Made by a program: the position numbers and the translations under genes. A DNA stretch of 64,000 nt from Candidatus Latescibacterota bacterium. Its GTDB lineage: Bacteria > Latescibacterota > UBA2968. The notes beneath the pieces are model-generated. The model saw only the letters and a program-made list of their open reading frames with translations, was not told the DNA's origin and did not search any database. Location: contig JAYODI010000001.1 in NCBI GenBank assembly GCA_038279365.1, positions 118,127-182,126 on the forward strand. The letters are read 5' to 3'. This document shows, in pieces, positions 1,635 to 17,781 of this stretch; within the stretch, counting starts at the first letter, position 1, and each line of letters starts with the position of its first letter.

Positions 1635-4238
1635 TTACGCATTTGTATACCGTGGTTTTACAGGGCAGGTGGGACATACATTTTTTAAATGGCGTCGTCG
1701 GGCGTGCCACAAATCAATGGCTTTGACAAGGGTTGTGTCGGCATTGCCAACTTTGCCGTGTGTTTGGCGGTTTTTAAGTGCGCTGTTGAGTTTGCGTGGG
1801 GAAACAGGGCATGGGCCGCTGCGAAAAGCGAGGCCTGGCACTTCGCGCACGGTGCCGTTGATGACCACGCGGTCGGTGTGACCAAATGGGTCAATGCATC
1901 CACAAGGCACTGAGACTTCTGCGGCGTGATAGGCTGTGCTGCTGTTGTGATCAACGCCGAGTGAGAGAATGTAGCCGCCATTGTGGATGAGGCGAGAAAT
2001 GGGGCTGTCGGCGGTCCACACACCCGTGGTGAGGTGATCGGCACAAATGTATTCGGCTTTGGGGCCAAAGGCCGCCACGGCATGGGTGGGGTGCAAACTG
2101 CGGATCACACCGGGGCGTTGCCAAAAGGCGTTGGGGATGGCCCCGTTTGTTGAGGGTGTGATGAGTGGGTTATAGACGTGTGCGCCTCGGTGGTTAAAGG
2201 AGGGCATAACGAGTGTGCCGTGTTTGCCAATCACACTTAAAAGGGCATCAATAACCGTGTTTGCGCCACCAATGACCTGCCCTACTTTGGAGAGGGAGCT
2301 GTGAACCATCACGTCCATGCCTGTTTGTAGGCCGAGGTTTTTAAAGTCGCTAATGAGTTGTGTTTTGCTGATGCGTTGATCAGATTCAACGAGTTCTACA
2401 TAGTCAAGTTCGGCATGGGCTTCGAAAAATTGTATCACATTTTCGAGGTCTATTTTTTTGCTGTGTTCGGCAGAGAGCAGCGCTGTGATTTCTGCGAGTG
2501 TTCGGTTGCCATCTGCCCAAAAGAGTGCCCACGCGGGCAAGCCCGATTTGCGAATGCGTTCTGCTATGGGTGTGGGGGTGTTTTCTGGGGTGGGCGATAA
2601 AAAGGCGGTGCGTTTGGGCACGCGTTTGGCATTTTGAGGGATACGTGATTGGGTTTTGGGTTTGGGGCCTGTTTTTTTGACTTGTTGTTCTAAGTGTGCA
2701 AAGTGATTGAGCATGTCCTCTTTGTCACTGTTCCAAAACCAGCGTTTGAGTTGGTTGAGGGATGTTTGGTGTTGTTCGCGCAGATAGGATGCAATTTCTA
2801 TGGACTGTGTTTTGCGAAGGTGCTCGCAGGTGTGTTCGGTTTCGGTTTGGGCGATGTCGTGCACATCTTTGTCGGTGGCGTTTGCCAAATAGTAGAGGTA
2901 AGCGGCCATGCTCGCCGCACATGCTTTGAGGCCCGATGTGCTTAGAAGGGTGTGTATGTCGTTTGAGGAATGGTAGGCACTCCAGTTTTTACCTTCTTCG
3001 CGGTAGTGTGTCGTGATCCACGGACAGGGGAAGCCATATTTGGGGTCGCCTGCAAGGGTGTCGGATGTAGAGACAAAGCCGCCTTCCGTGAGCGTGTAAC
3101 CCGAATCACTTTTTTTGAGGGTGGCCTGAATGATGTGTGCGCCAACGCGGTCGACAAATGTGGCCGACATGGGGATGGTAGATCGCCAAGAGAGTTGGCT
3201 GGCACAAATATTTGGGCGTGCGCCCACAGTGTCGATACACACACCCGCAATGGGTGTTTGTAGCCTGCGTGTGTGTTCCATGTAGTTGAAAAAGCTGTAA
3301 CACTCATAACCGCTTAAGAGGCGAATAGTACGTTTGGGGCGGGGGAGTTTTCCTGAGGCGATGAGGCTTTCAAGTGTGCGGGCAATTTCAAGGCAAACGG
3401 CCACACCCGAGGCATTGTCAATGGCACCGGGTTCGGCACTGTGTGCGAGGGCCCACACTTCATCTTGTGGGTTGTCTTGGCCCATAATGAGACCGCTTAC
3501 GAGGTCGTGTGAACCGACGTAGTCGTGTATGTCTACTTTAACGTGAACGGTGAGGGTGCCGTGCTTTTGGATGTGTTTGCGAAGTTTTTTGCCATCGTTT
3601 TGTGAGAGCACAAGACCCACAAGGTGAAGGTTGCCGTAAGCACTGTTGATAGACCCCCAGCCAAATTTGACCCACGGGGTTGCGTTGGGGAGTTCGGCTT
3701 GTGGGCAATCGGTGACAACACCTACTGCGCCTTTGTCGGCTATGGTTTTGAAGATGCTGCGGGCGTTGAGGTGGGTGAGAACGAGTTTGTTGCGCAAAGC
3801 GGTTGGACGGAGGGCTTCAAGTTGTTTTTGATCGTCAATGACCACGAGTTCACAGTCTATGCCTTGAGGCGGAGTGGCTGCGCTCCATTGAATGACGTGC
3901 CACGGATTGTCTTTGTAGTTGAGCACACGTTGGGTAATGGGAGAGATGATGTCGAGTGTGGCCGAGCGAATGTCACTGGCTTTGGGAATGATCCATCGCC
4001 CCGAACCAATTTTCCCACCTGTAGGGATTTTGTAGACTTCGGCTTTTGCGCCCGAGGCTTCGTAAGATTTGACGAGGGTTTCTGTGGTGTGGTGAAAGCG
4101 GTCAAACGAGTTCCAGCGATCCGTTTCAACAATGCGTTTGACATCGTTGAGAATGCGACGGCCTTGTGTGGCATTGTTGATGAGAGGCAAGGTTTTGCGA
4201 TTAAAAGCGGCGAGGCTACGGGGTGTGCGAGCTGGCAT
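1635..4238 (-). CDS. Fusion protein: PA-domain/M28 (DUF4910-like) Zn peptidase + winged helix + AAC(3)/YokD-family N-acetyltransferase
   Basis: M28 motifs AHSAEPGAIDNASG, GYEC, IDTVG, YHSSND; wHTH-like WADGNRTLAEI; AAC(3) motifs VHSSLS, GTLVMP, RSLHPTH, LGVDHNSSTAYHAAE. Start moved to ATG 4238 (AGGAG RBS at 4246-4250). Confidence 0.8.
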   Translation of the reverse strand: MPARTPRSLAAFNRKTLPLINNATQGRRILNDVKRIVETDRWNSFDRFHHTTETLVKSYEASGAKAEVYKIPTGGKIGSGRWIIPKASDIRSATLDIISPITQRVLNYKDNPWHVIQWSAATPPQGIDCELVVIDDQKQLEALRPTALRNKLVLTHLNARSIFKTIADKGAVGVVTDCPQAELPNATPWVKFGWGSINSAYGNLHLVGLVLSQNDGKKLRKHIQKHGTLTVHVKVDIHDYVGSHDLVSGLIMGQDNPQDEVWALAHSAEPGAIDNASGVAVCLEIARTLESLIASGKLPRPKRTIRLLSGYECYSFFNYMEHTRRLQTPIAGVCIDTVGARPNICASQLSWRSTIPMSATFVDRVGAHIIQATLKKSDSGYTLTEGGFVSTSDTLAGDPKYGFPCPWITTHYREEGKNWSAYHSSNDIHTLLSTSGLKACAASMAAYLYYLANATDKDVHDIAQTETEHTCEHLRKTQSIEIASYLREQHQTSLNQLKRWFWNSDKEDMLNHFAHLEQQVKKTGPKPKTQSRIPQNAKRVPKRTAFLSPTPENTPTPIAERIRKSGLPAWALFWADGNRTLAEITALLSAEHSKKIDLENVIQFFEAHAELDYVELVESDQRISKTQLISDFKNLGLQTGMDVMVHSSLSKVGQVIGGANTVIDALLSVIGKHGTLVMPSFNHRGAHVYNPLITPSTNGAIPNAFWQRPGVIRSLHPTHAVAAFGPKAEYICADHLTTGVWTADSPISRLIHNGGYILSLGVDHNSSTAYHAAEVSVPCGCIDPFGHTDRVVINGTVREVPGLAFRSGPCPVSPRKLNSALKNRQTHGKVGNADTTLVKAIDLWHARRRHLKNVCPTCPVKPRYTNA

Positions 4239-4422
4239 GGGCAAACTCCTGTAGGTACAAGGCAATAAAAAGAAGTGATCGTCCATTTATTACAACGAGT
4301 TTTGCCAATTTGCAACATCAATTTATTCCGGCGCGTTTGCTCGAGCGATTACTGAAGTCATTTTTCAATCTCTTTTGGTCACTTCCTTATTGTGACGCAA
4401 CATCGCTGATGAAAGTTTTGGG

Positions 4423-4722: not shown

Positions 4723-5094
4723 ATGATTGCAGGTGTTGGACATACACAAGCCAATTTGCTCAATCAAGCATTGGAACGCGCAAAAAGTGCGACAGAAGAT
4801 ATCACCACACTGTCACAAAAAAATGATGATGCTTCTGTGATGGGATTTTTAGATGACGTGCTCGATTTAAGTGATGGCAAGTCGTTGATGGGTGCATTGG
4901 GTGATTTGTCGCCCAATGAAGCCGATGGCGCACTCAAAGCTTTGGGGAAGTTGTTGCAGGCAGGCGTGGTTGGGTATGAATATCGCAAAGTGAATGGCGA
5001 AGTGCGCAAGGTGTTTATAGATGTGGCCATCGGCAGTGATTTGCATCGTGCCCCACTGGCGCGTGATGATGAAAAGTTTGACCGATTTGCATAG
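4723..5094 (+). CDS. Hypothetical protein
   Basis: 123-aa ORF with natural composition, directly after the previous stop, followed by a terminator. Confidence 0.7.
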   Translation: MIAGVGHTQANLLNQALERAKSATEDITTLSQKNDDASVMGFLDDVLDLSDGKSLMGALGDLSPNEADGALKALGKLLQAGVVGYEYRKVNGEVRKVFIDVAIGSDLHRAPLARDDEKFDRFA

Positions 5095-5116: not shown

Positions 5117-5150
5117 AAAGCCGTTGGATCTTTTGATCCAACGGCTTTTT
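5117..5150 (+). terminator. Rho-independent terminator; copy 1 of a 31-bp direct repeat
   Basis: aaagccgttggatc-tttt-gatccaacggcttt perfect stem plus T-run. Confidence 0.8.
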
Positions 5151-5158
5151 GTTTTGAT

Positions 5159-5192
5159 ACGTGGCTCAAATATGGGCATGTTTGAGCCACGT
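5159..5192. repeat. Inverted repeat (12-bp arms) upstream of the biosynthetic operon
   Basis: acgtggctcaaa-N10-tttgagccacgt. Confidence 0.6.
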
Positions 5193-5333
5193 GGGGACAG
5201 CGATATCCGTCTGTGAAATTTTTTTGTCATTTGTTTTATGATGACTTTTAGCTATTATAGGCTTCTGGATATTGCCACACGCTTATTGCAGGATTGCCTA
5301 AAATTTCACCCCAAAATGTGAGGGTAGATACCT

Positions 5334-6221
5334 ATGAAAGAAGACACTCCCAGTTCTACGGCGTTTACCGTTTTGCAGGGGCTTATGTATATTGCAGGAC
5401 ACCCTCGTTATTCATATCTGGTGAATGATGAAATTGCAAAAACGGGAAAACAAATTCTTTCTGCGTCTGATAAAGGGCTGAAGTTGCTCAAGCAACTTAA
5501 AAGCCCATTTTTTAAAGTACTTTTCCGTTTGGGTGAAAAGGCCTTGATGCCAGGCATTACCCTACATTATGCATTGCGTAAAAGTTACATTGAAGACATC
5601 ACACGTCAAGCAATTGCCGATGGTAAAACACAAGTGATCAGTTTGGGTGCTGGGTTTGATACCTTAGAATGGCGTTTGCACACCGAGTTTCCAGATGTAA
5701 ACTTTATCGAGATTGACCACCCTGCCACCAGCGCGTTTAAAGCCAAAGCACTCTTTGGCGAAAATTCTTCGCCATCCAATCTACATTTGTTGGCGGTTGA
5801 TTTTAGCAAGCAGAGTTTGTTGGAGGCGTTGGGGCCTTTTGCTGGGTTTGATGCCACACGGCCGACCCACTTTATTTGTGAAGGGGTGTTGCCCTATTTG
5901 TTGGAAAAAGATGTGGTCATTCTTCTGAATTCTTTAAATGAGCTTACGGGCAAAGGGACGCGTTTTGTGTTTAGCAGTGTCGCACCAATGGACAGCCCCA
6001 ATAACAATACGGGACCGTTGTTAAATTTGTATCTGTTTTTTATTAAAGAATCACTCAACTGGACCATTGAAAGTGTAGATATCCCAGCCTTTTTGGAGAA
6101 AAATGGTTTTAAGTTTATAGAATCGGCGTCTGTAGAAACTTTTAGAGACCGATATTTGGCAAAAGATCACGAAGGTGAGCTCCATCGCGGGGAATATCTG
6201 ATTTTGTCAGAAATTCCTTAA
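5334..6221 (+). CDS. SAM-dependent methyltransferase, leucine carboxyl methyltransferase (LCM)/O-MT family
   Basis: RKSYIED, QVISLGAGFDT, FIEIDHPAT, LAVDF, CEGVLPYL motifs. Confidence 0.85.
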   Translation: MKEDTPSSTAFTVLQGLMYIAGHPRYSYLVNDEIAKTGKQILSASDKGLKLLKQLKSPFFKVLFRLGEKALMPGITLHYALRKSYIEDITRQAIADGKTQVISLGAGFDTLEWRLHTEFPDVNFIEIDHPATSAFKAKALFGENSSPSNLHLLAVDFSKQSLLEALGPFAGFDATRPTHFICEGVLPYLLEKDVVILLNSLNELTGKGTRFVFSSVAPMDSPNNNTGPLLNLYLFFIKESLNWTIESVDIPAFLEKNGFKFIESASVETFRDRYLAKDHEGELHRGEYLILSEIP

Positions 6222-6247
6222 GCTTGATACAAGGTATGGTGATAAAA

Positions 6248-7954
6248 ATGGCAGATCGCAAGACGTTTAAAGTGATTTTGATTAAACCCTCTCAGTATGA
6301 TACCGATGGGTATGTCGTACAATGGTTTCGTTCAATTACGCCCTCAAATGCTTTGGCCTGTGTGTGTGGCATCGTACAAGATGCTGCACTGCGCCATGCA
6401 TTGGGTGACGACATTGAGATCGTTGTGACGGCATATGATGAATACAATACCCGCATTCCTATTAAGGCGATCAAACGCGATTTGAAGAATCCATCTGATG
6501 GGGTTGTGATGTTGGTGGGGGTTCACACACACCAATATCCACGTGCCATGGATTTGGCGCGTCCTTTACGCGAAGCGGGGGTGCAGGTGATGATGGGTGG
6601 GTTTCATGTTTCGGGGTGCCTTGCCATGGTGCCCGATTGGGAGCCTGCACTTGCATTGGCCAAAGAGTTGGGTGTGTCTCTGTTTGCGGGTGAGCTAGAA
6701 GACCATGTCGATGCGGTGTTAAAAGATGCACAAGAAGGATGCCTTAAACCCTTGTATAATGTGATGGATCAATTGCCCACATTAGATGTTGCTCCTACAC
6801 CATGGTTGCCAAAAGAAGCTTTAAAAAAAGCTTGGAATTGGACGAGTATCGACTTGGGCAGAGGGTGCCCTTTTTTGTGTAGTTTTTGTACCATTATCAA
6901 TGTGCAAGGGCGTTTGTCGCGTAGTCGATCTGTTGAGAGCGTGGTTGAGTATTTTCGTGTGCAGGCAAAGCGTGGTGTGACGCGTTATTTATTTACTGAT
7001 GACAATTTTGCAAGAAATAAAAATTGGGAAGTGTTGTTGGATGGCATTATAAAATTGCGGGAAGAAGAAGGAATCATCATTGATTATTTTATGCAAGTAG
7101 ATACCAAAGCAACCCGCATTCCGCGTTTTGTTGAAAAGGCAAAGCTTTCGGGGTGTTCAATCGTTTTTTTGGGTATCGAATCGGTTCGCCAAGAAAGTGT
7201 AAAGGCAGCAGGCAAAACACAAAATAAAGTGGCCGAGTTGCGGGATATGGTGATGACTTGGAAGCGGGCAGGTATTTTGACACAGGGCGCTTTTATTATT
7301 GGGTTTCCAACAGACACGCCTGAAAGTATTGCAGAAGATTTAGAATTTATTAAAACCAATATCCCTATAGATGTCTATGAATCGACGATGCTGATGCCGT
7401 TGCCAGGATCTGCAGATCACAGGCAACTGCTTGGTGACGGTGTGGCAATGGATTTGGACTTTAATAGATATGATGGTACGATGACGGCTATGGAACATCC
7501 CAATATGTCACGCGAGCAGTGGGCAGCACTTTATTGGAAGATGTATCATGTGTTTTATTCTTGGTCTCATATTGAGACCATTTTTAAGCGTGCTTTGGCC
7601 TGTGGTTTGTCTCCTTCAAGGGTGTTTGGGAGTGTTTTTGGTTATTATGGTCCCATAAAAATAGAAAATCTGCATCCGTTGGTATGTGGCACGATGCGAC
7701 GAAAGTTTCGTCACGCAAGGCGTTATGGTTTGCCACTTGAGTCGCCTTGGATATTTTATCCCAAGCGTTTATTGGAAGTGGTGAGAACCCAAGTGCGTAG
7801 AATGGTTTTTATTTCCAAATTAGCAGTCGTCATGGTGTGGGCTTGGCAAAAAGTGCGTAAAAATGGTTATACCGATACTGCAATTGAGCAAAGAGAAAAT
7901 GATCAAGTCACTCCAGAGATGTCAACCAAACTTAGTCAGGTGGCGTTGGGTTAA
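6248..7954 (+). CDS. Cobalamin-binding (class B) radical SAM enzyme
   Basis: N-terminal B12-binding-like domain (MGGFHVSG, FAGE), RGCPFLCSFC CxxxCxxC motif, DDNF, GIES, FIIGFPTDT. Confidence 0.85.
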   Translation: MADRKTFKVILIKPSQYDTDGYVVQWFRSITPSNALACVCGIVQDAALRHALGDDIEIVVTAYDEYNTRIPIKAIKRDLKNPSDGVVMLVGVHTHQYPRAMDLARPLREAGVQVMMGGFHVSGCLAMVPDWEPALALAKELGVSLFAGELEDHVDAVLKDAQEGCLKPLYNVMDQLPTLDVAPTPWLPKEALKKAWNWTSIDLGRGCPFLCSFCTIINVQGRLSRSRSVESVVEYFRVQAKRGVTRYLFTDDNFARNKNWEVLLDGIIKLREEEGIIIDYFMQVDTKATRIPRFVEKAKLSGCSIVFLGIESVRQESVKAAGKTQNKVAELRDMVMTWKRAGILTQGAFIIGFPTDTPESIAEDLEFIKTNIPIDVYESTMLMPLPGSADHRQLLGDGVAMDLDFNRYDGTMTAMEHPNMSREQWAALYWKMYHVFYSWSHIETIFKRALACGLSPSRVFGSVFGYYGPIKIENLHPLVCGTMRRKFRHARRYGLPLESPWIFYPKRLLEVVRTQVRRMVFISKLAVVMVWAWQKVRKNGYTDTAIEQRENDQVTPEMSTKLSQVALG

Positions 7955-8007
7955 TGTGTGGATGATTGTCATGGCTATGGTGCTGTTTTCCCTGTTGCCC
8001 CATATTA

Positions 8008-11000
8008 ATGTTTATGAAATATGATGTGAATACTGATTTGTCAAATACCTCGCCAATCTACCATCCGCTCACATCCGGGCAAAGAGATGTGTGGTTAGAT
8101 CAAATGGTGTACCCAGATGTGCCGTTTTATAACATTGGAGGGTATCTCAGAATTGATGGGCATATTGATCCCGTTGTGTTTGAACAGGCGCTGCGTCGGG
8201 TTGTGCAGAGTAATGATGCTTTAAGAATTGTATTACACAAAGGGAACCCACTGCCCGTTCAAGAATTTAGAAATGATGGTGTTTTTGATATTCCTTTTAT
8301 AGATTTTTCTGAACAAAAAGATCCCATGCAGAAGGCCGAAGCTTGGATGCAAGCGCAATTTGTACGGCCATTTGAACTGTATGGGCATTTTCTTTTTCGT
8401 TATGCTATTATCAAGGTATCAGACCAATGTTATTGTTATTTTAACAATCAACACCATTTGGTTGCCGATGGTTTGTCTATTCTTATCCTTACAGAACAAC
8501 TTTCAAAAGAATATAATGCCCTGATGATGGACCAATTGAGCAACGAAGTTCCCCCATCTTATCATGCGTTTATCTTAGAAGAACAAAAGTTTTTCCAGTC
8601 TAAACGATGTGAACAATCCAAGGCATTCTGGCAAAAAATTTATCAAGACCTGCCAGAACCACTTGTTTCTTACCCTAAGCGTGATACCGAAAATGATGTG
8701 CCGTTTCGAGGTGGTTTGTCTGCGCTGAGAATCAAGCCCAGTGAATATGCCGTTTTAGAGGATTTTTGCAAGGCACAAGGTGTTACGCCCTATCATCTTT
8801 TGCTTGCCGCGCTTTATGTGTGTTTTTTGCACAATGGCATTCAGAAGGACTTTGTATATGGGGCGCCTGTGTTGAATCGTTCTCATGCAAAGGCAAAAAA
8901 AACGATTGGGCTTTTTACCAGTGTGAGCCCTGTTCGTTTTTGTTTTGGGTTGGATATCAATACGCTTGATCTTTTGGGTTTGATCAGCGAGGAGTTAAAG
9001 CGTGTCTATCGTTATCAGCGTTTGCCATTGGGAGAAATTAATAAGCTTTGTGGGATATCTCAGGCGTTTGGTCGTTCGTTGTTTGATATTGGTGTGTCGT
9101 ATGAAAAAAACGATTATGGTATGACATTTCAAGGTGCCCGTGCACAGGCTATTACCTATTCAAATGGATTTGAAAGACAGGCACTCTCTATTGCGCTTAA
9201 AGAATATCGCAAGGGCGATGATATCGAGTTGGATTTTTCCTTCAATCTGCAGGTTTTTGATGCCAAAGAGATCGACTATTTGAAACACCGTGTTCTTTTT
9301 GTTATGGAGGAGATGGTTCGCAACTCACATACAAATTTGAACAGGTTAGATATTTTACCCGCGTCAGAGAAGACGGATGTTTTGAGAGGTTGGAACGAGA
9401 CCCAAAAAGAAATACCCAAGAAGTTGGCGCACCATTTTTTTGAAGATTGTGCAAAGACTATGCCTGAGCAATTGGCCGCTGTTTGTGGCCAACAGCAAAT
9501 GACGTATCGGGTTTTGAATGAACAGGCCAATCAATTGGCGCATTATCTCACTGCTTGTGGCATTGGAAAACAAGATTTTGTTGGCATTTGTATCGATCGT
9601 TCATTTCATATGTTGGTTGCCATTTTGGGGGTGTTAAAAGCGGGCGCGGCCTATATTCCGCTGGATCCTAATTATCCAAATGCACGTCTTGCTTTTATGA
9701 TTGGTGATGCCAAGGTCAAGTTGATTTTGACCCAAGAGGATCTGCTGTCTGTGTTGCCTCAAGATGGGGGCGATGTTTTTTGTCTGGATCGAGATAGGGC
9801 CCATTGGCAGGTGCAAAGTGCCAAACCGGTTGTTTTACAAACTGCCGATACAGATGATTTGGCTTATGTGATTTATACCTCTGGGTCAACGGGGCAACCC
9901 AAGGGGGTGATGATTGGCCATCAAAGTTTGGTGAATCTCATTGTTGCTCAAACTCGTTTGTTTGATATTCAAGCGCAAAGTCGCGTATTGCAGTTTGCTT
10001 CGTTTAGTTTTGATGCCTCTGTGTCCGAAATTTTTACAACATTGTCATCGGGCGCAACGCTTGTGTTGGCCTCCAAAGACGAGATAATGCCAGGCCCCAA
10101 TTTGGTGCAAACATTAAACGCGTTTGAAGTTACCCATGTCACTCTGCCTCCATCTTCATTGGGGGTGCTTCCCTATACCGATCTGCCTGCTCTGGAAACG
10201 TTGGTGGTTGCGGGTGAAGCGTGTGCCGAAGATTTGGCAAAGAAGTGGGGCCCAGGACGGCGCTTTATGAATGCCTATGGCCCAACTGAGGCCACCGTAT
10301 GTGCATCAACTTGGGTGTTTGAAAAGGAGATGGGCAAACCTTTGATTGGGCGTCCTATCGACAATGTTCAACTTTATGTTTTAAATGATGATTTGCGTCC
10401 GGTTTCTGTTGGTCAAGCTGGTGAGTTGCATATTGCGGGTATGGGAGTGGCAAAAGGATATTTGAATCGACCAGAATTAGAGTGTGAAAAATTCATTCCC
10501 AATCCTTTTGATAAGCGTGATGGTTCTCGTCTTTATAAAACGGGAGACTTGGTTCGCTGGTTGGCAGATGGTAATCTCGATTTTTTAGGACGCAAAGACT
10601 TTCAAGTGAAAATTCGAGGCTTTCGCGTGGAGCTTGAAGAAATCGAATCAACGCTTAGACAACATGCATCTGTGCAAGATGCGGTTGTGATTGTGACCGA
10701 ATGGGGCCCACAGATACAAAACTTGGTGGCTTATTTTATTCCATCAGGAAAGGTGTTGCAAGACGACACGTCGATTTTGAAATCCTTTTTGCAATCAAAA
10801 CTGCCCAATTATATGGTTCCTCATTTTATGCTTCCCATCGATCAGTTTCCATTAACACCCAGTGGAAAAATAGATCGCAATGGGTTTCCCAAACCGACGG
10901 GTGCCTTTTCAAAAGATGCTGAAAACAATCAACCTGTTACAGATGCCGAACAAAAATTGCTGTCCATTTGGAATGGTGTTATGCCGGGGGTTCAGATTGG

Positions 11001-11907
11001 GATTCATGCCCCTTTTTTTGATGTGGGACTCGATTCTTTAAAAACCATACAGTTTATTTATCATGTAGAGGCCGAGTTTGACGTGAAGCTCCATCCCAGT
11101 GTTTTGTTTCAGCAGAATACGGTTTCGGCGTTGGGGCAATTTCTTTCCGAAAAAAAAGATGGTTTTAAACCCTCTCAAAGTCTCGTTCACATTCAAATAA
11201 AAGAAAAAAAGGTGCCTTTTTTTTGTGTGACGGGTGGATATGGTGATGTTTTGGTTTTCAAAGACCTGGCTCAGTTTATGCCACGTTCATTTTATGCCTT
11301 ACAACCGCCGAGTTGGACAAACGACAATGCGCTCTCCTTTGCGGATCTTGCAAGATACTATGTTCGCGATATTCAATCGGTTCAAAAAAAGGGGCCTTAT
11401 CTATTGGGTGGATACAGTTTGGGAGGAATTATTGCCTTGGAGATGGCGCGAGAATTCAAAGAGATGGGTGAACAGGTTGATGCGCTGGTTGTGTTTGGTG
11501 CCCCGCTGACCCATGGGGTTTTGGGGCATTGGATATATAAGCGTTTGATGGGGACAGTAAAGAAATTTGTTCCAGAATCAGAGCAAAGCGAGTCGGAGGT
11601 TGTGCGTATTCTTAAAGGGTTGTTTCGCGATGAAGGTTTGCAACGACATATGAATAGTTTGACTGGGTATGTTGCCAGCCCGTATTCGGGTAAGATTACC
11701 ATTTTTGAAGGCAAGCAGGCATCGTCTCGATTTTATCCGTGGAAGAAGAAGTGGCAACAGTTGGCATACGGCGGGCTAGAGATTGTTATGTTGCCAGGCA
11801 ATCACCACAGTTTTATTCGATCACCCAACAATGCGGCGTTTGCCCAGCATTTGGAATGTTGTTTAGAAGGCGTTATGGCCAATTCTGTGGGTGAGGTGGG
11901 TAGATGA
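8008..11907 (+). CDS. Monomodular NRPS (C-A-T-TE)
   Basis: C: HHLVADG; A: YVIYTSGSTGQPKG, FDASV, NAYGPTE, YKTGD, QVKIRGFRVEL, SGKIDR; T: FFDVGLDSL; TE: GYSLGG and PGNHH. Exact start (8008/8014) uncertain. Confidence 0.95.
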   Translation: MFMKYDVNTDLSNTSPIYHPLTSGQRDVWLDQMVYPDVPFYNIGGYLRIDGHIDPVVFEQALRRVVQSNDALRIVLHKGNPLPVQEFRNDGVFDIPFIDFSEQKDPMQKAEAWMQAQFVRPFELYGHFLFRYAIIKVSDQCYCYFNNQHHLVADGLSILILTEQLSKEYNALMMDQLSNEVPPSYHAFILEEQKFFQSKRCEQSKAFWQKIYQDLPEPLVSYPKRDTENDVPFRGGLSALRIKPSEYAVLEDFCKAQGVTPYHLLLAALYVCFLHNGIQKDFVYGAPVLNRSHAKAKKTIGLFTSVSPVRFCFGLDINTLDLLGLISEELKRVYRYQRLPLGEINKLCGISQAFGRSLFDIGVSYEKNDYGMTFQGARAQAITYSNGFERQALSIALKEYRKGDDIELDFSFNLQVFDAKEIDYLKHRVLFVMEEMVRNSHTNLNRLDILPASEKTDVLRGWNETQKEIPKKLAHHFFEDCAKTMPEQLAAVCGQQQMTYRVLNEQANQLAHYLTACGIGKQDFVGICIDRSFHMLVAILGVLKAGAAYIPLDPNYPNARLAFMIGDAKVKLILTQEDLLSVLPQDGGDVFCLDRDRAHWQVQSAKPVVLQTADTDDLAYVIYTSGSTGQPKGVMIGHQSLVNLIVAQTRLFDIQAQSRVLQFASFSFDASVSEIFTTLSSGATLVLASKDEIMPGPNLVQTLNAFEVTHVTLPPSSLGVLPYTDLPALETLVVAGEACAEDLAKKWGPGRRFMNAYGPTEATVCASTWVFEKEMGKPLIGRPIDNVQLYVLNDDLRPVSVGQAGELHIAGMGVAKGYLNRPELECEKFIPNPFDKRDGSRLYKTGDLVRWLADGNLDFLGRKDFQVKIRGFRVELEEIESTLRQHASVQDAVVIVTEWGPQIQNLVAYFIPSGKVLQDDTSILKSFLQSKLPNYMVPHFMLPIDQFPLTPSGKIDRNGFPKPTGAFSKDAENNQPVTDAEQKLLSIWNGVMPGVQIGIHAPFFDVGLDSLKTIQFIYHVEAEFDVKLHPSVLFQQNTVSALGQFLSEKKDGFKPSQSLVHIQIKEKKVPFFCVTGGYGDVLVFKDLAQFMPRSFYALQPPSWTNDNALSFADLARYYVRDIQSVQKKGPYLLGGYSLGGIIALEMAREFKEMGEQVDALVVFGAPLTHGVLGHWIYKRLMGTVKKFVPESEQSESEVVRILKGLFRDEGLQRHMNSLTGYVASPYSGKITIFEGKQASSRFYPWKKKWQQLAYGGLEIVMLPGNHHSFIRSPNNAAFAQHLECCLEGVMANSVGEVGR

Positions 11908-13175
11908 AGATTACGATTGTCACACTCGGAACCCGTGGTGATGTGCAACCGTGTATTGCGATGGGGTTGGGGTTGCGGGCTGCAGGTCATGAGGTGAAGA
12001 TCGCTGCTCCTGCAGAATACGGCCACCTGGCTCGTAACAAAGGGTTGGACTATTTTCCGCTTCAAAATGCGTTTAGACATATTTTTGAAACCGAATCAGA
12101 ATGCAGTCGGTTGAAGGAAGAGATCAATCCGTTACGCCTGATTTTTCGCCAAAGAAGTGTGGTAGAACCTGTTGTTAATCAAATTTTTTCAGATTTATGG
12201 ACTGCCTGCCAAGATACCGATCTCATCCTTTATACAATATTGGCTTTGCCGGCTTATTATTATGCTCAAGATTTGGGTATTCCTGCTTTTATGGTATGCT
12301 TGCAACCGCTTTGTCGCACGCGGGCATTTCCGAGTGTTTTGTTTTCGCCAAAAATTTCAAATATTGCCTGGGTCAACCGTGCAAGTTACATATTGGTCGA
12401 GCAAGCGATGTGGCGATTTTTGCGGCCCTATTTTGTGTGTTGGCGAAAGAAAATGGGATTGTCGGCCGTTTCTTTTTGGGGGCACTTTAATCAGTTTGAT
12501 GGCCATAAAACACCTATTTTTAATGGGTATAGCTCTTCGGTTGTTCCTAAACCCAAAGATTGGGGCGATCGAAACTATGTGACGGGATATTGGTTTTTAG
12601 ACAGCACTCCTCCCAATTGGCAACCCCCTCCAGATCTGGTTCGTTTTCTCAAGCAGGGTTCACGGCCCGTGTGTTTTGGTTTTGGGAGCATGAACGACAG
12701 CCGTGTTGCAAACATGGTAAAAATGGCGATTGGTGCTTTAGAAAAAAGTGGTCAACGGGGAATCTTATTAACGGGGAAAAGTGATCTCAAAAAAGATGAG
12801 TTACCGCTGTCTGATCATGTTTTTGTGGCCGAAGAAATACCTCATGCCTGGTTGTTTCAGCACGCGGCCGCCGTGATTCACCACGGTGGTGCGGGAACGA
12901 CCGCCACAGCCATTCGAGCAGGAATTCCGTCTATTATTATTCCTTTCTTTTTTGATCAGCTTTTTTGGGGGCGGCAGCTTGCCACTTTGGGTGTGGGGCC
13001 CGAGCCTGTGATCAAGAGGCGGCTATCGGTTGATGGATTGGCATTGTCATTAAAAGATGCGTTGGATAACAAGACGTATCAAAATCGGCTTCAAGCGTTA
13101 AGCAAGCAGATCAATGATGAAAATGGAGTTGGATGTGTTGTTGATACTTTTCATCGCGAGTTGGCCAGACTTTAA
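11904..13175 (+). CDS. GT1/GT28-type glycosyltransferase (sterol glucosyltransferase-like)
   Basis: GTRGDVQP N-terminal motif; FGSM, PHAWLF, HHGGAGTT, PFFFDQLFWG; ATGA overlap with the NRPS stop. Confidence 0.92.
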   Translation: MKITIVTLGTRGDVQPCIAMGLGLRAAGHEVKIAAPAEYGHLARNKGLDYFPLQNAFRHIFETESECSRLKEEINPLRLIFRQRSVVEPVVNQIFSDLWTACQDTDLILYTILALPAYYYAQDLGIPAFMVCLQPLCRTRAFPSVLFSPKISNIAWVNRASYILVEQAMWRFLRPYFVCWRKKMGLSAVSFWGHFNQFDGHKTPIFNGYSSSVVPKPKDWGDRNYVTGYWFLDSTPPNWQPPPDLVRFLKQGSRPVCFGFGSMNDSRVANMVKMAIGALEKSGQRGILLTGKSDLKKDELPLSDHVFVAEEIPHAWLFQHAAAVIHHGGAGTTATAIRAGIPSIIIPFFFDQLFWGRQLATLGVGPEPVIKRRLSVDGLALSLKDALDNKTYQNRLQALSKQINDENGVGCVVDTFHRELARL

Positions 13176-13197
13176 AACGGATCGTGTGGATTTATAG

Positions 13198-15519
13198 ATG
13201 CCTACGCATAACCATTTTAACCCATCATCAGAGAATGACATTTTACGTGTTTTTCAATCTGCACCTCTTTTTCAAGGTTTGGGTCAAGGTATTTTGGAGC
13301 TGTTGGCCGCAGAGGCAGATTGGGTGGGGCTTGAGAGTGGCGATTTCCTTTTTAAAAAAGGAGATCCATCCGATGCGATGTATTTGGCAGTAACGGCGGG
13401 ATTGGCTGTTTGGATTGAGCAAGAAGTCGTGGTTGGTTCAGCGGATACCAAAGAGGCTGGTGAAGAATCTGTTATTACCATGACCGAAGCGGATGGGACA
13501 ACGTTGGTTGCCAAGGAAATTGATCAGGGAGAAACCATCGGTGAAATGCAATTTTTGACCAGTGGCAAACGCACGGCAAATGTGAGTGCGTTACAAGATA
13601 CAAACGTGGTTCGGGTTCGTTATGATGCGCTTGAGTTTTTGGGCGATCAAAAAATGGTTTTTTTAGAACATTTGAGTCGCATTGTTCGCAAGCGTTTACA
13701 ATTTAACCAGTTGGCCACCATTCTTCCTAAATTATTTGGTGTTCTTACAGCCGACGAGCTTGAAGATATTGTCGAACGGGCCGATTGGTTTGAGGTCCAA
13801 AGAGGAGAAACGCTCTTTTCTCAAGGAGATGTAGGCGATAGTTTTTACATTTTGTTGAGTGGTCGATTGGGAATCGCTGTGGTGGGTGAGGGTGGCGAAC
13901 GCAAGTTGGTAAGTGAAGTGATGGCTGGTGAGATTTTGGGTGAAATGGCATTGTTAACCGAAGAAAGTCGTTCGGCAACGGTTTATGCGATTCGCAATTC
14001 CAATTTGTTTAGGCTTTCAAAAAGTGAATTTGATCGTTTACTGGAAAAATATCCTAAGTTTTTATCGCAAATCAACCGTGTGCTGATTGAGCGCCTTCGC
14101 GTTTCAATTGGTTCAAAGCGCAAAACCGAACCCACCTCTGTAATTGCCATTGTGCCTACAAGTCCCAATACGGCAACGGAAGATTTTGCACGTCACTTGT
14201 CTCAAGCCTTATTGGCAAGTTATGCCACATTGAGTGTCAACAGCAAACAAGTAGATGCCTTGCTCAATGCGCCGAACATTTCACAGGTGTCAGAAACCGA
14301 CCCCAATGCCATCAGAATTGCAACGTGGTTTAGTGCCCAAGAATTGGCTTATCCGTTCATCCTACTTGTGGCCGACTCTCAGTTGACGCACTGGACGCGG
14401 TGGTGCGTGCGTCATGCCGACCATGTTTTGATTTTGGGAGAAGACGATGCTTCGGCAAATTTGGGCGAAATAGAAGATGGGCTATTATTTCATGATAAAA
14501 CGTTTACGCCAGATTTCTTTTCATTGGTGCTTGTACATTCAGATCCTGAAACCAAGCCTGTCAGTACCCAGAAGTGGCTCAAAGAAAGAACGGTTGCCAT
14601 GGTGCATCATGTTCGTAGACATGCACCTCAAGATTTTCAACGGTTGGCACGCTATTTAACGGGGCAATCTGTGGGGTTGGTTTTAAGTGGTGGGGGCGCG
14701 CGAGGGTTTGCCCATCTTGGTGCCATTCGCGCATTACAAGAAAATGGTGTTCCAATTGATATGATTGCAGGAACCAGTTTTGGTTCGATTGTGTCTGGGC
14801 TTTTTGCAATGGGGTGGAGCTTAGAAAAAATAACCCATGAGTTTCGTTTTGATCGGTCTGACTTATTGAAAGATATCACGCTTCCAATGGCCTCTCTTTT
14901 TTCTGGCAAAAAGATGGCCAAGGCGTTTAGAGGTTTTTTTGGCGATACGCGTATTGAGGATCTCTGGATTCCTTTTTTTTGTGTTTCAAGCAATCTCACA
15001 CGCGCCGAAATAAAGGTGCATCAGTCGGGCGCGATGTGGCAAAGCATTCAGGCCAGTAATGCGGCACCGGGTATTTTTCCGCCAGTGGTGTTGAATGGCG
15101 ACTTGCATGTCGATGGGGCATTGTTGAGCAATTTGCCCGCAGATATAATGAGCCAATATTGCAAAGGCACGGTGATTTCGGTCGATGTGAGTCCTGCTGT
15201 TGATTTGGCAGAGAATGCAGATTATGGAGATGGGCTGTCTGGGTGGGATATATTATGGCGCAAGTTAAATCCATTTTCTTCGCCAATTTCTGTACCAAGT
15301 TTGCTTTCTATTTTACATCGCTCTGGCGAACTGGCCAGTGTGGCCAATCAAAAAGAAATTGCAGAACGTGTTTCAGATTTGTATCTGCGCATGCCTGTTG
15401 AAAAATATAATTTGCAAGAGTATGATTTGTCCCAAGAAATTGCCGAAACCGGCTATCACTATGCTCAGATAAAAATTGCAGAGTGGTTACGTGACTCACC
15501 GCCATCATGGCTCAAGTGA
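13198..15519 (+). CDS. Two cNMP-binding domains + patatin-like phospholipase (NTE/RssA-like)
   Basis: Two CAP-type domains (GEMQFL...RTANV; GEMALL...RSATV); patatin GGGARG, GTSFG nucleophile, DGA. Confidence 0.9.
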   Translation: MPTHNHFNPSSENDILRVFQSAPLFQGLGQGILELLAAEADWVGLESGDFLFKKGDPSDAMYLAVTAGLAVWIEQEVVVGSADTKEAGEESVITMTEADGTTLVAKEIDQGETIGEMQFLTSGKRTANVSALQDTNVVRVRYDALEFLGDQKMVFLEHLSRIVRKRLQFNQLATILPKLFGVLTADELEDIVERADWFEVQRGETLFSQGDVGDSFYILLSGRLGIAVVGEGGERKLVSEVMAGEILGEMALLTEESRSATVYAIRNSNLFRLSKSEFDRLLEKYPKFLSQINRVLIERLRVSIGSKRKTEPTSVIAIVPTSPNTATEDFARHLSQALLASYATLSVNSKQVDALLNAPNISQVSETDPNAIRIATWFSAQELAYPFILLVADSQLTHWTRWCVRHADHVLILGEDDASANLGEIEDGLLFHDKTFTPDFFSLVLVHSDPETKPVSTQKWLKERTVAMVHHVRRHAPQDFQRLARYLTGQSVGLVLSGGGARGFAHLGAIRALQENGVPIDMIAGTSFGSIVSGLFAMGWSLEKITHEFRFDRSDLLKDITLPMASLFSGKKMAKAFRGFFGDTRIEDLWIPFFCVSSNLTRAEIKVHQSGAMWQSIQASNAAPGIFPPVVLNGDLHVDGALLSNLPADIMSQYCKGTVISVDVSPAVDLAENADYGDGLSGWDILWRKLNPFSSPISVPSLLSILHRSGELASVANQKEIAERVSDLYLRMPVEKYNLQEYDLSQEIAETGYHYAQIKIAEWLRDSPPSWLK

Positions 15520-15525
15520 AAAAAT

Positions 15526-16518
15526 ATGTGGTTCGGTTTAATTGTTTTGCTCGTTTTCGCAGTATGGGCCTTTACGGGTTATGATTTTGCCTTGGTGGTG
15601 TCTTCATTGGCTTCAGCAGATTGGCGATGGATATGTGTGGGGGTGGGGCTCAATGTTTTGTTGTTGTATTTGCGTGTGTATAAGTGGCGCTTTTTTAATT
15701 CGGCATTTAGGGATTTTTCATATTTCAATATGTCATTGGCGGCATTTGCTGCTTATACTTGCAATATGGTTGTGCCTGCCAAAGTGGGTGCATTTGTTCA
15801 AGCGTGGCTTTTGAGTCAAAAAGAACCGATTCCAGCGAGTACTGTTTTGAGCACGTTGGTGTTGGTGCGTGTTATGGATGGGGTTTCTCTTACTTTTGTT
15901 GGGTTGTTGGTTTTTAATTTTGTCGAGGTATCATCTGAGCAAAGTTCAATATGGGATGCTTATAAAACGGCAGGTGTTTTATTGGCGTCCTTTTTGTTTT
16001 TTGTGATTGTTTTTTTATTTTGGTTGGGGCGTTATCCAAGTGCCCGTATTGTTTTTGAGCGGTTTGTCAGGTTCTTTTTGCCAACGCGTTTTAAAGCCTC
16101 TTGTGGCAAGGTGGTGAATTCGCTTTGGGAGGGCTTTGCTGTTTTGAACCACGGTGGGAGCTTAGGTATTATTGCGTTTTTGAGTTTTGTTTTTTGGGGG
16201 GTGGCAGCAACGATGGTTTTTGTGTATCTTAAGGCTTTTTATGTTATAGATGTTCCGATGTATCTCCCTTTGTGTATTATTTTGGCACAAGCAGTCGGAT
16301 TTATGATTCCCTCTCCTGGGTATGTGGGGCCTTTTCATGCCGCCACGGTTACTGCGTTGTCTTTTTTTGATATTTCTGGCGAGTTGGCGTTGTCCATCGC
16401 CATTATGATGCACGCGGCTTTGTTTGTGACCAATTCTTTGCTGGGTATTATTTATCTGTGGATCGAAAATTTGAATGTTGTTGCTGTCATTAAAAAGGCA
16501 AAAGATGGATTTGGTTAA
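15526..16518 (+). CDS. Lysylphosphatidylglycerol synthase TM-region / flippase-like membrane protein (UPF0104)
   Basis: Multi-TM; R..KW, NMVVPAKVG, RVMDG, PSPGYVGPFH motifs typical of the family. Confidence 0.8.
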   Translation: MWFGLIVLLVFAVWAFTGYDFALVVSSLASADWRWICVGVGLNVLLLYLRVYKWRFFNSAFRDFSYFNMSLAAFAAYTCNMVVPAKVGAFVQAWLLSQKEPIPASTVLSTLVLVRVMDGVSLTFVGLLVFNFVEVSSEQSSIWDAYKTAGVLLASFLFFVIVFLFWLGRYPSARIVFERFVRFFLPTRFKASCGKVVNSLWEGFAVLNHGGSLGIIAFLSFVFWGVAATMVFVYLKAFYVIDVPMYLPLCIILAQAVGFMIPSPGYVGPFHAATVTALSFFDISGELALSIAIMMHAALFVTNSLLGIIYLWIENLNVVAVIKKAKDGFG

Positions 16519-16649
16519 GATCAATGCAAAATTGAAAAAGTGACACTTGGCGTGTGTTGAATGATACGGGTGCGGTATTGGAGCAGGTGATCGAAATGTG
16601 AGTGGGATGATACTTTCTCGTATTGGAGTTGATGTGTATTGTAAAAGAG

Positions 16650-16682
16650 GCCGTTGGATCTTTTGATCCAACGGCTTTTTTT
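16650..16682. terminator. Terminator between convergent genes; copy 2 of the 31-bp direct repeat
   Basis: gccgttggatcttttgatccaacggcttttt identical to 5120-5150. Confidence 0.8.
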
Positions 16683-16721
16683 ACATCGTGGATGTTTTTG
16701 GCCTCATAGGGCTGGGTTGTG

Positions 16722-17768
16722 TTATTTAGGATCTGGAATGACTACGCCGAGTTCATTGGCTGCTTCACAAATGGCATCCCAAGTGTTGTCTTCAATGAAG
16801 ATGCCTTCGGCTTCGCGTTGGGTTTGGCGTTCTTGTTCAATTTCTCCGGGCAGATAAACTTTGCCGTGGTCGGGGTGAACGGGTGATGATTTGACCCAAT
16901 CGATCAGTTTTTGGATTTCGGCCTTGTATTCGTCTATGTCGATAAAGCTGTTGATGTTGATGGCTATGGCAACAAACCCACTGCCGCCACGGGTGGGTTT
17001 TTCACTGCTACACCCAGCCCAAGAAAGGCCACCGGCAATGGCTTCAATCATCATGCCCAAGCCATATCCTTTGTGTCCCATTGTGCCACCCAAGGGCAAC
17101 ATGGCCGCCAAGCCATCTTTAAAGAGATTGGGGTCTGTGACTGTGTTGCCGTCTTTGTCTACGAGCCAGCCTTCAGGCACATCTTGTTCACGCGCTTTAT
17201 ACACATCCACTTTGCCACCTGCGGCCATGCTGGTGGTGATGTCAAGCATAAGGGGGGGGCCACTTTGTGTGGGCGCACTAAATGCAATGGGGTTAGGTGG
17301 TAAGCGACGGCCTGTGCCACCAAAGGGTGCCGTAAAGCGTGCGCCACCATTGAGCATGAGCAAACCAATACAGTCGCGTTTTGCAGCTATGGGCGGAAAA
17401 TCACCCAAGCGACCTATGTGACTGCATTGGTGTACGGCCACGGCACCAAAGGTGTGGGTGAGCGCCCGGTCTGTGGCCATTTCCATGGCGCGTCGGGCAA
17501 GCACGATGCCCAAGCATCCTTCGCCATCAATGACCACTGAGGCGGGGGTCTCGCGCACAATTTTGAGTTTGCCCACGGGTTTCATACCACCGGCTTTGAT
17601 GCTTTTTAAATAGGAGGGGGTGCGAATAACGCCGTGTGAATCGTGGCCCATGAGATTGGCTTCTACAAGATGGTCGGCCATAATTTTTGCCTGATCTTGA
17701 GGCAGATCAACCGATTGAAACAGGTCGGTGACGAGTTTGCGAAGGGGCATATGGTCTATATGTGGCAT
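16722..17768 (-). CDS. Ldh_2 family (type-2 malate/L-lactate, YbiC-like) oxidoreductase
   Basis: ANLMGHDSHG, SHIGRLG, APFGG..NPIA, LDITTS, GHKGYGL, LPGE. Confidence 0.9.
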   Translation of the reverse strand: MPHIDHMPLRKLVTDLFQSVDLPQDQAKIMADHLVEANLMGHDSHGVIRTPSYLKSIKAGGMKPVGKLKIVRETPASVVIDGEGCLGIVLARRAMEMATDRALTHTFGAVAVHQCSHIGRLGDFPPIAAKRDCIGLLMLNGGARFTAPFGGTGRRLPPNPIAFSAPTQSGPPLMLDITTSMAAGGKVDVYKAREQDVPEGWLVDKDGNTVTDPNLFKDGLAAMLPLGGTMGHKGYGLGMMIEAIAGGLSWAGCSSEKPTRGGSGFVAIAININSFIDIDEYKAEIQKLIDWVKSSPVHPDHGKVYLPGEIEQERQTQREAEGIFIEDNTWDAICEAANELGVVIPDPK

Positions 17769-17781
17769 GTGTTTTCCTTTT

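Follow-up and report, generated by a model that had tools for sequence, protein, structure and literature searches.

A 64,000-nucleotide (nt) stretch from the genome of a Candidatus Latescibacterota bacterium (assembly GCA_038279365.1, contig JAYODI010000001.1, forward-strand positions 118,127 to 182,126), referred to here as the window, carries six genes that form one horizontally acquired cassette of 11.5 kb (5150–16649), among them a gene for a single-module nonribosomal peptide synthetase (NRPS). We propose, with a probability of roughly 0.55, that this cassette makes a glycosylated lipo-amino acid, that is, an N-acyl aromatic amino acid lipid or surfactant located in or on the cell envelope.

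Gene content and acquisition of the cassette

The listing of open reading frames (ORFs) contains exactly six between 5334 and 16518, all co-oriented on the plus strand (Table 1) and separated, in order, by 2, 11, −4, 22 and 6 nt, the second gap becoming 53 nt with the ATG at 8008 as the NRPS start. The stop codon of the NRPS gene and the start codon of the glycosyltransferase (GT) gene share the ATGA at 11904–11907. The catalytic motifs that were looked for are all intact, namely HHxxxDG, the carrier serine and the thioesterase GxSxG in the NRPS, CxxxCxxC in the radical S-adenosylmethionine (SAM) protein, and GGGxR, GxSxG and DGA in the patatin. An initial annotation of the same DNA had described six tightly packed genes of these families, in an operon without a phosphopantetheinyl transferase (PPTase), MbtH, acyl-CoA ligase or efflux pump. 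The layout was confirmed by the ORF listing and the families by Pfam and NCBIfam, and neither of these profile scans detected a PPTase, MbtH, acyl-CoA ligase or pump domain among the six genes.

Table 1. Genes, NRPS domains and boundary features of the cassette (window coordinates).
Feature	Position	Strand	Basis
Left 31-nt direct repeat, coinciding with the terminator hairpin and T-run of the upstream gene (4723–5094)	5119..5149	+	
Cassette leader, with a second strong hairpin (~5159–5195) and a promoter-like site (5213–5242)	5150..5333	+	
LCM / TIGR00027-type SAM-dependent methyltransferase	5334..6221	+	Pfam, NCBIfam
Radical SAM protein, class-B-like	6224..7954	+	Pfam Radical_SAM
Single-module NRPS, C-A-T-TE	7966..11907	+	Pfam Condensation, AMP-binding, PP-binding, Thioesterase
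NRPS starter C domain	~8065..9378		
NRPS A domain	~9439..10869		
NRPS T domain	~10954..11145		
NRPS TE domain	~11218..11850		
GT1 glycosyltransferase	11904..13175	+	Pfam Glyco_transf_28 N-terminal and EryCIII-like_C/UDPGT
NTE-type patatin-like phospholipase	13198..15519	+	Pfam 2x cNMP_binding, NTE_Ploop and Patatin
LPG_synthase_TM (MprF flippase-domain-like) membrane protein	15526..16518	+	Pfam, full length; TIGR00374
Right 31-nt direct repeat, end of the cassette	16650..16680	+	Identical to left copy

The cassette is bounded by two identical 31-nt repeats in direct orientation, whose 26-nt core occurs at only these two sites in the 6.03-Mb genome, even when up to three mismatches are allowed. 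As hairpins, the same repeats are the two most terminator-like sites of the region, the one at 5119–5149 ranking first in the scan. In three relatives the site is empty, with the orthologs of the flanking genes lying about 0.8–0.9 kb apart (G002 and G001, of the same genus, and G007, of the same family). In G002, where the two flank orthologs (an M28/NAT fusion and Ldh_2, each 84% identical) are about 900 nt apart, alignment of the empty site revealed a single copy of the hairpin and nothing else between the flanks; the flanks are adjacent in the same way in G001 and G007. Moreover, the G+C content of the cassette (43.9%) is below that of the rest of the window (46.9%) and below that of every 11.5-kb stretch of it, and G+C at third codon positions (GC3) is uniform over the six genes (0.405–0.427). 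The repeats are identical, the site is empty in relatives and the base composition is both distinct and uniform; therefore, the six genes were gained, or are lost, together. A site-specific island is marked by such terminal direct repeats and by an empty site in relatives, and would also be expected to carry an integrase; no integrase or transposase was found by Pfam or NCBIfam among the six genes.

The cassette is not confined to this assembly, as at least half of its sampled words were present in nine sequencing runs from five studies, one of which is possibly the source of the assembly. Two independent DNA runs (X5 and X7) yielded contigs of up to 3.3 kb with 98.7–100% identity over the cassette; overall, nearly identical contigs of it come from two further studies, of estuary and marine metagenomes. 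A contig of the estuary run X5 that spans the right junction (16364–18200) differs by 0.05–1.3% inside the cassette and is about 5% divergent from ~16440 onward, so that in X5 the cassette may sit in a diverged strain or be shared between diverged strains. No contig joining the flanks across the cassette was found in four runs, a result without bearing on whether the empty-site form exists there. In two RNA-library runs, contigs with 98–100% identity fall on the leader and on the genes for the methyltransferase, NRPS, GT and patatin, which is no proof of transcription.

The leader itself contains, just inside the left end of the cassette and upstream of the promoter-like site, a hairpin with a perfect stem of about 16 bp (~5159–5195; fold z = −8.6), for which an operator, a terminator remnant and a recombination site are all candidates. 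The promoter-like site was recognized by consensus comparison only, with a 9/12 match. No Rfam family, riboswitches included, scored over threshold in the leader or the gene cluster.

The NRPS is a single-module synthetase with a starter condensation domain

The NRPS gene is a 3.9-kb ORF encoding one module, with condensation (C), adenylation (A), carrier (T) and thioesterase (TE) domains in that order, and is the sole gene of the genome with a Condensation domain. Its true start is probably the ATG at 8008, judging from a relative with 98% identity (P0121). Eleven full-length relatives with the same C-A-T-TE architecture were found, with identities of 98, 66, 58, 57, 53, 50, 50 (51 in A2, the alignment of these full-length relatives), 41, 40, 36 (37 in A2) and 36%. 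Next in rank came first modules of cyclic lipopeptide synthetases of the arthrofactin type. A gene for an Sfp/HetI-type PPTase is located on another contig of the genome.

The C domain occupies residues 34–471, N-terminal to the A domain, and carries HHLVADG at residue 163. A YNIGGY motif lies about 30–40 residues from the N-terminus in this NRPS, in its relatives and in the first modules of lipopeptide synthetases. When the C domain was compared with those of 15 dimodular synthetases, it matched the first C domain (157–266 bits) better than the internal one (at most 121 bits) in 15 of 15 cases, and in four of them the internal domain was not detected at all. Its best solved relatives were the structures 7C1K, 7C1H and 7C1P (RzmA-Cs), with CDA-PS1, likewise a starter C domain, within the top eight. 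According to the RzmA work, the starter C domain of RzmA takes acyl-CoA donors, and shorter side chains in place of its Arg148 lead to longer acyl chains. The C domain of the window has Ile at the corresponding position, a hint that may speak against a donor limited to acetyl groups. These best-hit comparisons, which differ from a NaPDoS-style tree, support typing the C domain as a starter (lipoinitiation) domain with predicted use of an acyl donor, in agreement with what had been claimed for it from its N-terminal position.

Among solved structures, the single domains closest to the A domain were GrsA-PheA (416 bits), ApnA-A1 and TycA; LgrA tops the list only through the summed score of two domains, which places five LgrA entries above 1amu. 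Motif anchoring on GrsA numbering, which is not a specificity predictor, gave the signature DASSVAAVCK. The form DASS[V/I]AAVCK is present in 8 of the 11 relatives aligned in A2 and also at two metagenome loci (L119 and L103), the remaining three relatives having DAWSVAAVCK (P0123 and P0124) or DSSSIGAVCK (P0127), and seven further single-module matches carry other signatures. By signature tables, DASSVAAVCK is one position off a tyrosine signature and the Trp-containing variant resembles phenylalanine signatures; for the first modules of the arthrofactin type, the same anchoring yields a signature that fits their Leu. We lean towards an aromatic (Tyr/Phe-like) amino acid as the predicted substrate of the A domain.

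The glycosyltransferase resembles sterol glucosyltransferases

The GT matched the yeast sterol 3-beta-glucosyltransferase over its full length (5gl5 and 5xvm; E 1e-52, residues 2–420), followed among solved proteins by the vancomycin enzymes GtfB, GtfD and GtfA, and many of its bacterial relatives carry the automatic name sterol glucosyltransferase. By similarity it is closest to UGT51-like lipid (sterol) glucosyltransferases, by analogy with which UDP-glucose would be the donor and a lipid hydroxyl the acceptor, in line with the lipophilic acceptor originally proposed for this GT1 enzyme. Two of its relatives, P0243 (66%) and P0244 (59%), come from contigs whose recorded lengths, 675,716 and 5,362 bp, equal those recorded for the NRPS relatives P0123 and P0126; this correspondence points indirectly to co-location of the NRPS and GT genes in both cases.

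Patatin, flippase-like protein and methyltransferase

The patatin protein has the full architecture of the NTE (PNPLA6) type, with cyclic nucleotide monophosphate (cNMP)-binding domains, the NTE P-loop-like region and a patatin domain in which GGGARG, GTSFG and DGA are present (Ser-Asp dyad). The genome has a second, native NTE-type patatin with one cNMP domain (G000:C169:30513-32618; L155:7514-9619), which is also found in both same-genus genomes and whose gene adjoins those of a FadL/TodX-type outer-membrane protein and an aldehyde dehydrogenase.

The product of the last gene (330 aa) aligns with positions 2–302 of the 302 of Pfam LPG_synthase_TM (PF03706, 2.5e-39) and with TIGR00374, named 'flippase-like'. 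It consists of the transmembrane (TM) region only and has no aminoacyl-phosphatidylglycerol synthase domain, so it does not belong to MprF, and it may work like the flippase half of that protein. The methyltransferase matches Pfam LCM (8e-31) and TIGR00027 (121 bits, above the cut-off), and among solved proteins it is closest to the mycobacterial Rv0731c and ML2640. As the LCM family methylates carboxyl groups, and an N-acyl amino acid presents an alpha-carboxylate similar to a protein C-terminus, the enzyme would by analogy catalyze carboxyl O-methylation, with formation of a methyl ester.

Conservation of the gene set around related NRPS genes

A search with a pattern derived from the ortholog-specific N-terminal (starter-C) motif retrieved 22 metagenome loci, all of which encode a relative of the NRPS. 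The domain scan of the neighbouring genes covered 81 of 89 ORFs, the other eight being long NRPS ORFs. Locus L110 contains, in order, genes for an MMPL protein, a small ORF, the NRPS (46% identity, split in two frames), the GT (57%), the patatin (48%), the LPG_synthase_TM protein (54%) and a LolA_like protein. The run of NRPS, GT, patatin and LPG_synthase_TM genes thus keeps its order at 46–57% identity, with the GT directly after the NRPS. Locus L119 contains an LCM methyltransferase (45%), LolA_like, DUF1302, the NRPS (36%, on the opposite strand), MMPL and a patatin (31%), and locus L122 has LolA_like, a 635-aa ORF and the NRPS. Between L110 and L119, the MMPL proteins share 47% identity and the LolA_like proteins 58%. 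Wherever the context is long enough to judge, in three cases, a patatin gene accompanies the NRPS gene. The idea that these genes co-occur elsewhere consequently holds for NRPS, GT, patatin and flippase-like genes in L110, and for methyltransferase, NRPS and patatin genes in L119; it fails for the radical SAM gene, which is at none of the 22 loci.

No ortholog of the NRPS was found in 168 genomes of the phylum, 14 of which (that of the window, G000, counted) encode some NRPS at E <= 1e-100 and 27–40% identity, the matches at 38–40% covering the A domain only. Orthologs of the cluster were also absent from 60 relatives and from a 400-genome sample of the class to which G168 belongs, and at the six loci viewed from this sample, two of them from G313, no GT gene adjoined an NRPS gene. 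The best three candidates with a single ORF (G419, G246 and G172) were rejected, being terminal modules of multi-gene assembly lines.

Two of the NRPS-relative loci have unusual arrangements. In one of them (L120:2598-6821), a PilZ domain (PF07238, 3e-09) is inserted after the A core, ahead of the AMP-binding_C subdomain, so that the protein could be a cyclic di-GMP-sensing synthetase. The other (L107, 14 kb) carries tandem genes for one-module C-A-T-TE synthetases with starter C domains, of which two are complete and one more is split or partial; the signature of the first is DVGFIGSI-K.

The radical SAM gene belongs to a stand-alone family

The second gene of the cassette encodes a protein with a Radical_SAM domain (PF04055, 1.5e-18) and the motif CPFLCSFC (CxxxCxxC) at residue 215; its best solved relative is AprD4 (4e-11). 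It had been labelled a B12-radical SAM enzyme, of which the radical SAM part is sustained by domain and motif and the B12 part is unconfirmed, as the B12-binding domain PF02310 gave no match in Pfam even at E <= 1. Hints of B12 binding come from weak NCBIfam alignments over residues 78–257 and from the automatic B12-binding names of look-alike clusters in the Atlas.

The family of this protein (6224–7954; L008–L087) is very large and stand-alone, with about 45–50% identity across phyla and no conserved neighbourhood. Relatives of the protein number over 8000; the best 120 of them are ~46–53% identical, with one more at 82%. At 80 genome loci of the family, methyltransferase, GT, patatin and LPG_synthase_TM genes were found at none and something NRPS-like at two, and no neighbour family recurred at more than four of the 80. 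As indirect evidence, none of the best 120 matches is recorded on a contig of the same size in bp as that of any NRPS ortholog. The protein had been presented as a partner in the pathway, for which neither the NRPS-relative loci (0 of 22) nor the loci of its own family (0 of 80) show the linkage. Of the roles considered here, that of the radical SAM protein has the least support; it may act on the acyl chain or the side chain, by methylation or by another radical reaction.

Proposed pathway and alternatives

In the pathway that we propose for the glycosylated lipo-amino acid, the Sfp/HetI-type PPTase encoded elsewhere in the genome would prime the carrier domain, the A domain would load an amino acid, probably aromatic (Tyr/Phe-like), and the starter C domain would N-acylate it with a fatty acyl or 3-hydroxyacyl thioester from primary metabolism. 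The nature of the amino acid and the steps from product release onward are what we infer. The TE domain would free the product by hydrolysis or possibly by ester-forming oligomerization; the translationally coupled, sterol-glucosyltransferase-like GT would put a sugar on a hydroxyl of the lipophilic acceptor, and the LCM-type methyltransferase would methyl-esterify the free alpha-carboxylate. The NTE-type patatin, under control of cyclic nucleotides, may remodel the acyl chains through deacylation or transacylation, and the MprF-like TM protein would carry the amphiphile across the inner membrane, with the MMPL pump and the LolA-like protein taking it further in the relatives.

A bolder and improbable version of this pathway is that the starter-C NRPS and the cNMP-gated NTE-type patatin together constitute an undescribed, OlsB- and tRNA-independent route to two-tailed envelope aminolipids. 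The NRPS would make an N-(3-hydroxyacyl) aromatic amino acid, and the patatin, acting as a transacylase, would move a second acyl chain to it from a phospholipid, giving an acyloxyacyl lipid similar to ornithine lipids. The GT and the carboxyl methyltransferase would then cap the product into a neutral glycolipid, to be delivered to the outer leaflet or the outer membrane by the MprF-like flippase or, in the relatives, by the MMPL and LolA-like proteins. The whole would be an 11.5-kb plug-in passed between coastal bacteria.

The cassette might instead make a diffusible bioactive N-acyl amino acid glycoside (an antibiotic, signal or free surfactant), with the patatin and the MprF-like protein serving in self-protection or membrane repair, an alternative that we consider unlikely yet worth weighing. 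MprF-type flippase domains are tied to resistance against membrane-active compounds and the cassette has no dedicated outer-membrane export genes, both of which are compatible with such a product. Long-chain N-acyl tyrosines are, moreover, antibacterial, as cited in PMC11959600. This picture is at odds with the linkage of patatin and NRPS genes in all three contexts long enough to judge, and with the presence of MMPL and LolA_like genes at L110 and L119, together with DUF1302 at L119. These three families are tied to the movement of lipids to the envelope. The lipid-export genes (MMPL and LolA_like) that accompany related clusters favour a lipid or surfactant over a classical antibiotic. This was also the view of the initial annotation, which had proposed a glyco-aminolipid rather than an antibiotic; the starter C domain, the NRPS–GT linkage, the sterol-type GT and the MMPL and LolA_like genes of the relatives argue for it, with methylation and flipping staying at the level of prediction.

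The six genes could also be a co-transferred mosaic, in which the NRPS and GT make a glycolipo-amino acid, the patatin and the LPG_synthase_TM protein remodel phospholipids, and the methyltransferase and radical SAM protein act on an unrelated substrate. The stand-alone, context-free family of the radical SAM protein and the native NTE-type paralog that the genus has in an unrelated context would fit such an origin, as would the described short NRPS–GT pairs, for which the accessible part of the report makes no mention of such partners (PMC3849588). A mosaic is nevertheless rather doubtful in view of the tight packing with tiny gaps and one overlap, the restriction of strong terminator-like hairpins to the cassette ends, the uniform GC3, the gene order kept in L110 and the methyltransferase and patatin genes near the NRPS in L119. 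Far less probable is a defence island of the Pycsar or CBASS kind, with the cNMP-binding patatin as a nucleotide-activated phospholipase effector. PADLOC models of Pycsar effectors do match its cNMP-binding domains, those of CBASS phospholipase effectors match its patatin domain, and the genes are a horizontally acquired cassette. These matches are at the domain level only, and taken as a whole, with NTE_Ploop, the patatin has the architecture of the NTE family; we rejected defence as the main explanation of it. PADLOC returned no matches for the methyltransferase, GT and LPG_synthase_TM proteins and one weak match for the radical SAM protein, and the cassette contains no cyclase or other defence gene. 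To our knowledge, moreover, an NRPS–GT pair has no place in defence systems.

Several observations weigh against an envelope glycolipo-amino acid made by all six genes. Every function beyond the NRPS is inferred. More than the NRPS is kept at only two of the 22 loci with the starter-C motif, the others being mostly multi-module synthetases or short contigs, and one of these two (L119) has no GT or LPG_synthase_TM gene within 10 kb. The radical SAM gene is missing from all 22, and at the 80 loci of its own family it shows no link to the other genes of the cassette. The window has neither of the export genes of the relatives (MMPL and LolA_like), and the genome holds no close copy of them, its best MMPL-like gene reaching 25% identity over a part only. 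The amino acid was assigned by motif anchoring and signature tables, in place of a predictor, and no MbtH was found in the genome, which is relevant only if the A domain requires one. The RNA-library contigs fall short of proving transcription, and none of them lies on the radical SAM or LPG_synthase_TM genes, which is in itself uninformative.

Relation to known systems

Among characterized systems, the serrawettin W1 synthetase SwrW is close in architecture to the NRPS of the cassette, being a unimodular C-A-T-TE enzyme with a starter C domain that builds an aminolipid surfactant from a 3-hydroxy fatty acid and one amino acid. Unlike the NRPS of the cassette, SwrW is not known to have a GT, patatin or flippase-like partner; it uses serine, and its TE domain dimerizes and cyclizes the product. 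Mycobacterial glycopeptidolipid loci share with the cassette an NRPS-dependent lipidated core, glycosylation by GT1 enzymes and methylation (by O-methyltransferases in mycobacteria), with export to the cell surface by MMPL-family transporters, but differ from it in their tetrapeptide core and multi-module NRPSs, and in belonging to another phylum with a different envelope. An MMPL gene encoded together with NRPS, GT and methyltransferase, which would mark a glycopeptidolipid-type locus, is absent from the cassette and from the window as a whole; relatives L110 and L119 do have MMPL.

The pairing of a short NRPS with an overlapping GT gene has been known since Royer et al. 2013 (PMC3849588), whose accessible text describes short NRPSs (C-A-PCP-TE, where PCP is the peptidyl carrier protein domain) with the 3' end of the gene overlapping a GT gene by 4 or 8 bp. 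The hosts were Xanthomonas albilineans (XALc_0364/0365 and XALc_1145/1144), X. campestris, X. citri, Alcanivorax borkumensis and Bradyrhizobium BTAi1, the pair of A. borkumensis being ABO_1784/ABO_1783, with the PPTase ABO_1782. According to the same text, the C domains fall in the starter clade, most A domains have the glycine signature DILQLGLIWK, and the function of the pairs was then unknown. The cassette resembles them in its one-module C-A-T-TE gene of about 4 kb, its starter C domain and the 4-bp overlap with the GT gene, as well as in having the PPTase encoded elsewhere, as in most of those genomes. It differs in its signature (DASSVAAVCK against mostly DILQLGLIWK) and in its additional genes, as that text mentions no patatin, LPG_synthase_TM, LCM methyltransferase or radical SAM partner in what is a comparison of descriptions only. 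The six-gene combination, which had not been recognized from any characterized cluster, is accordingly new in part: the NRPS–GT core is not, and the patatin, flippase-like, methyltransferase and radical SAM additions and the aromatic signature are. No description of an NRPS encoded with an NTE-type patatin and a flippase-like gene was found in a literature search outside of which most subscription journals lay.

The logic of an NRPS with a glucosyltransferase had been cited as reported for the glycine-glucolipid of Alcanivorax. The gene pair itself is on record (ABO_1784/ABO_1783, accessible part of PMC3849588), whereas a 2023 article names ABO_1783 as a candidate GT for the glycine-glucolipid and states that the pathway has not been elucidated (PMC10710537). 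As described there, this lipid is like the predicted product in having an amino acid in amide linkage to glucose-bearing 3-hydroxy fatty acids and in being a cell-associated surfactant. A candidate GT gene for it (ABO_1783) likewise adjoins that of a short NRPS. Its amino acid is glycine, in contrast to the aromatic signature of the cassette.

The chemotype that we predict, a fatty-acylated aromatic amino acid with a sugar on a hydroxyl and methylated variants, exists among hyellamide and other bacterial N-acyl tyrosines (PMC11959600 and PMC12479983). Hyellamide is a xylosylated eneamide derived from N-myristoyl-tyrosine and made without an NRPS (PMC11959600), and N-acyl tyrosines otherwise come from NasY synthases (PMC12479983). 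The biosynthesis of these compounds differs from that proposed for the cassette in relying on acyltransferases of the SGNH/GDSL type or N-acyl amino acid synthases of the NasY type instead of an NRPS (PMC11959600 and PMC12479983).

If the proposal is correct, a small, self-contained cassette would add a phosphorus-free, sugar-bearing aminolipid or surfactant to the bacterial surface, a point of interest for how bacteria of coastal waters adjust their envelopes and interfaces. The short NRPS–GT pairs of Xanthomonas and Alcanivorax would gain a broader functional frame, and bacterial NTE-type patatins and stand-alone MprF-like TM proteins a first biosynthetic context. The cassette is compact and ready for expression, with 11.5 kb, one promoter region and the PPTase to be supplied in trans.

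Other features of the window

The left flank of the cassette holds, on the minus strand, a gene (1635–4286) for an 883-aa fusion of M28 peptidase and aminoglycoside 3-N-acetyltransferase domains. Its ortholog in G002 (G002:C10:4966-7596) was read across one in-frame TGA, and a fragment in G001 (G001:C920:2-712) across one TAA. On the other side of the cassette, at 20412–21656, the window encodes a LytB/IspH homolog of 414 aa in which the match covers 341 residues for 262 profile positions, implying a putative insertion of roughly 80 residues.

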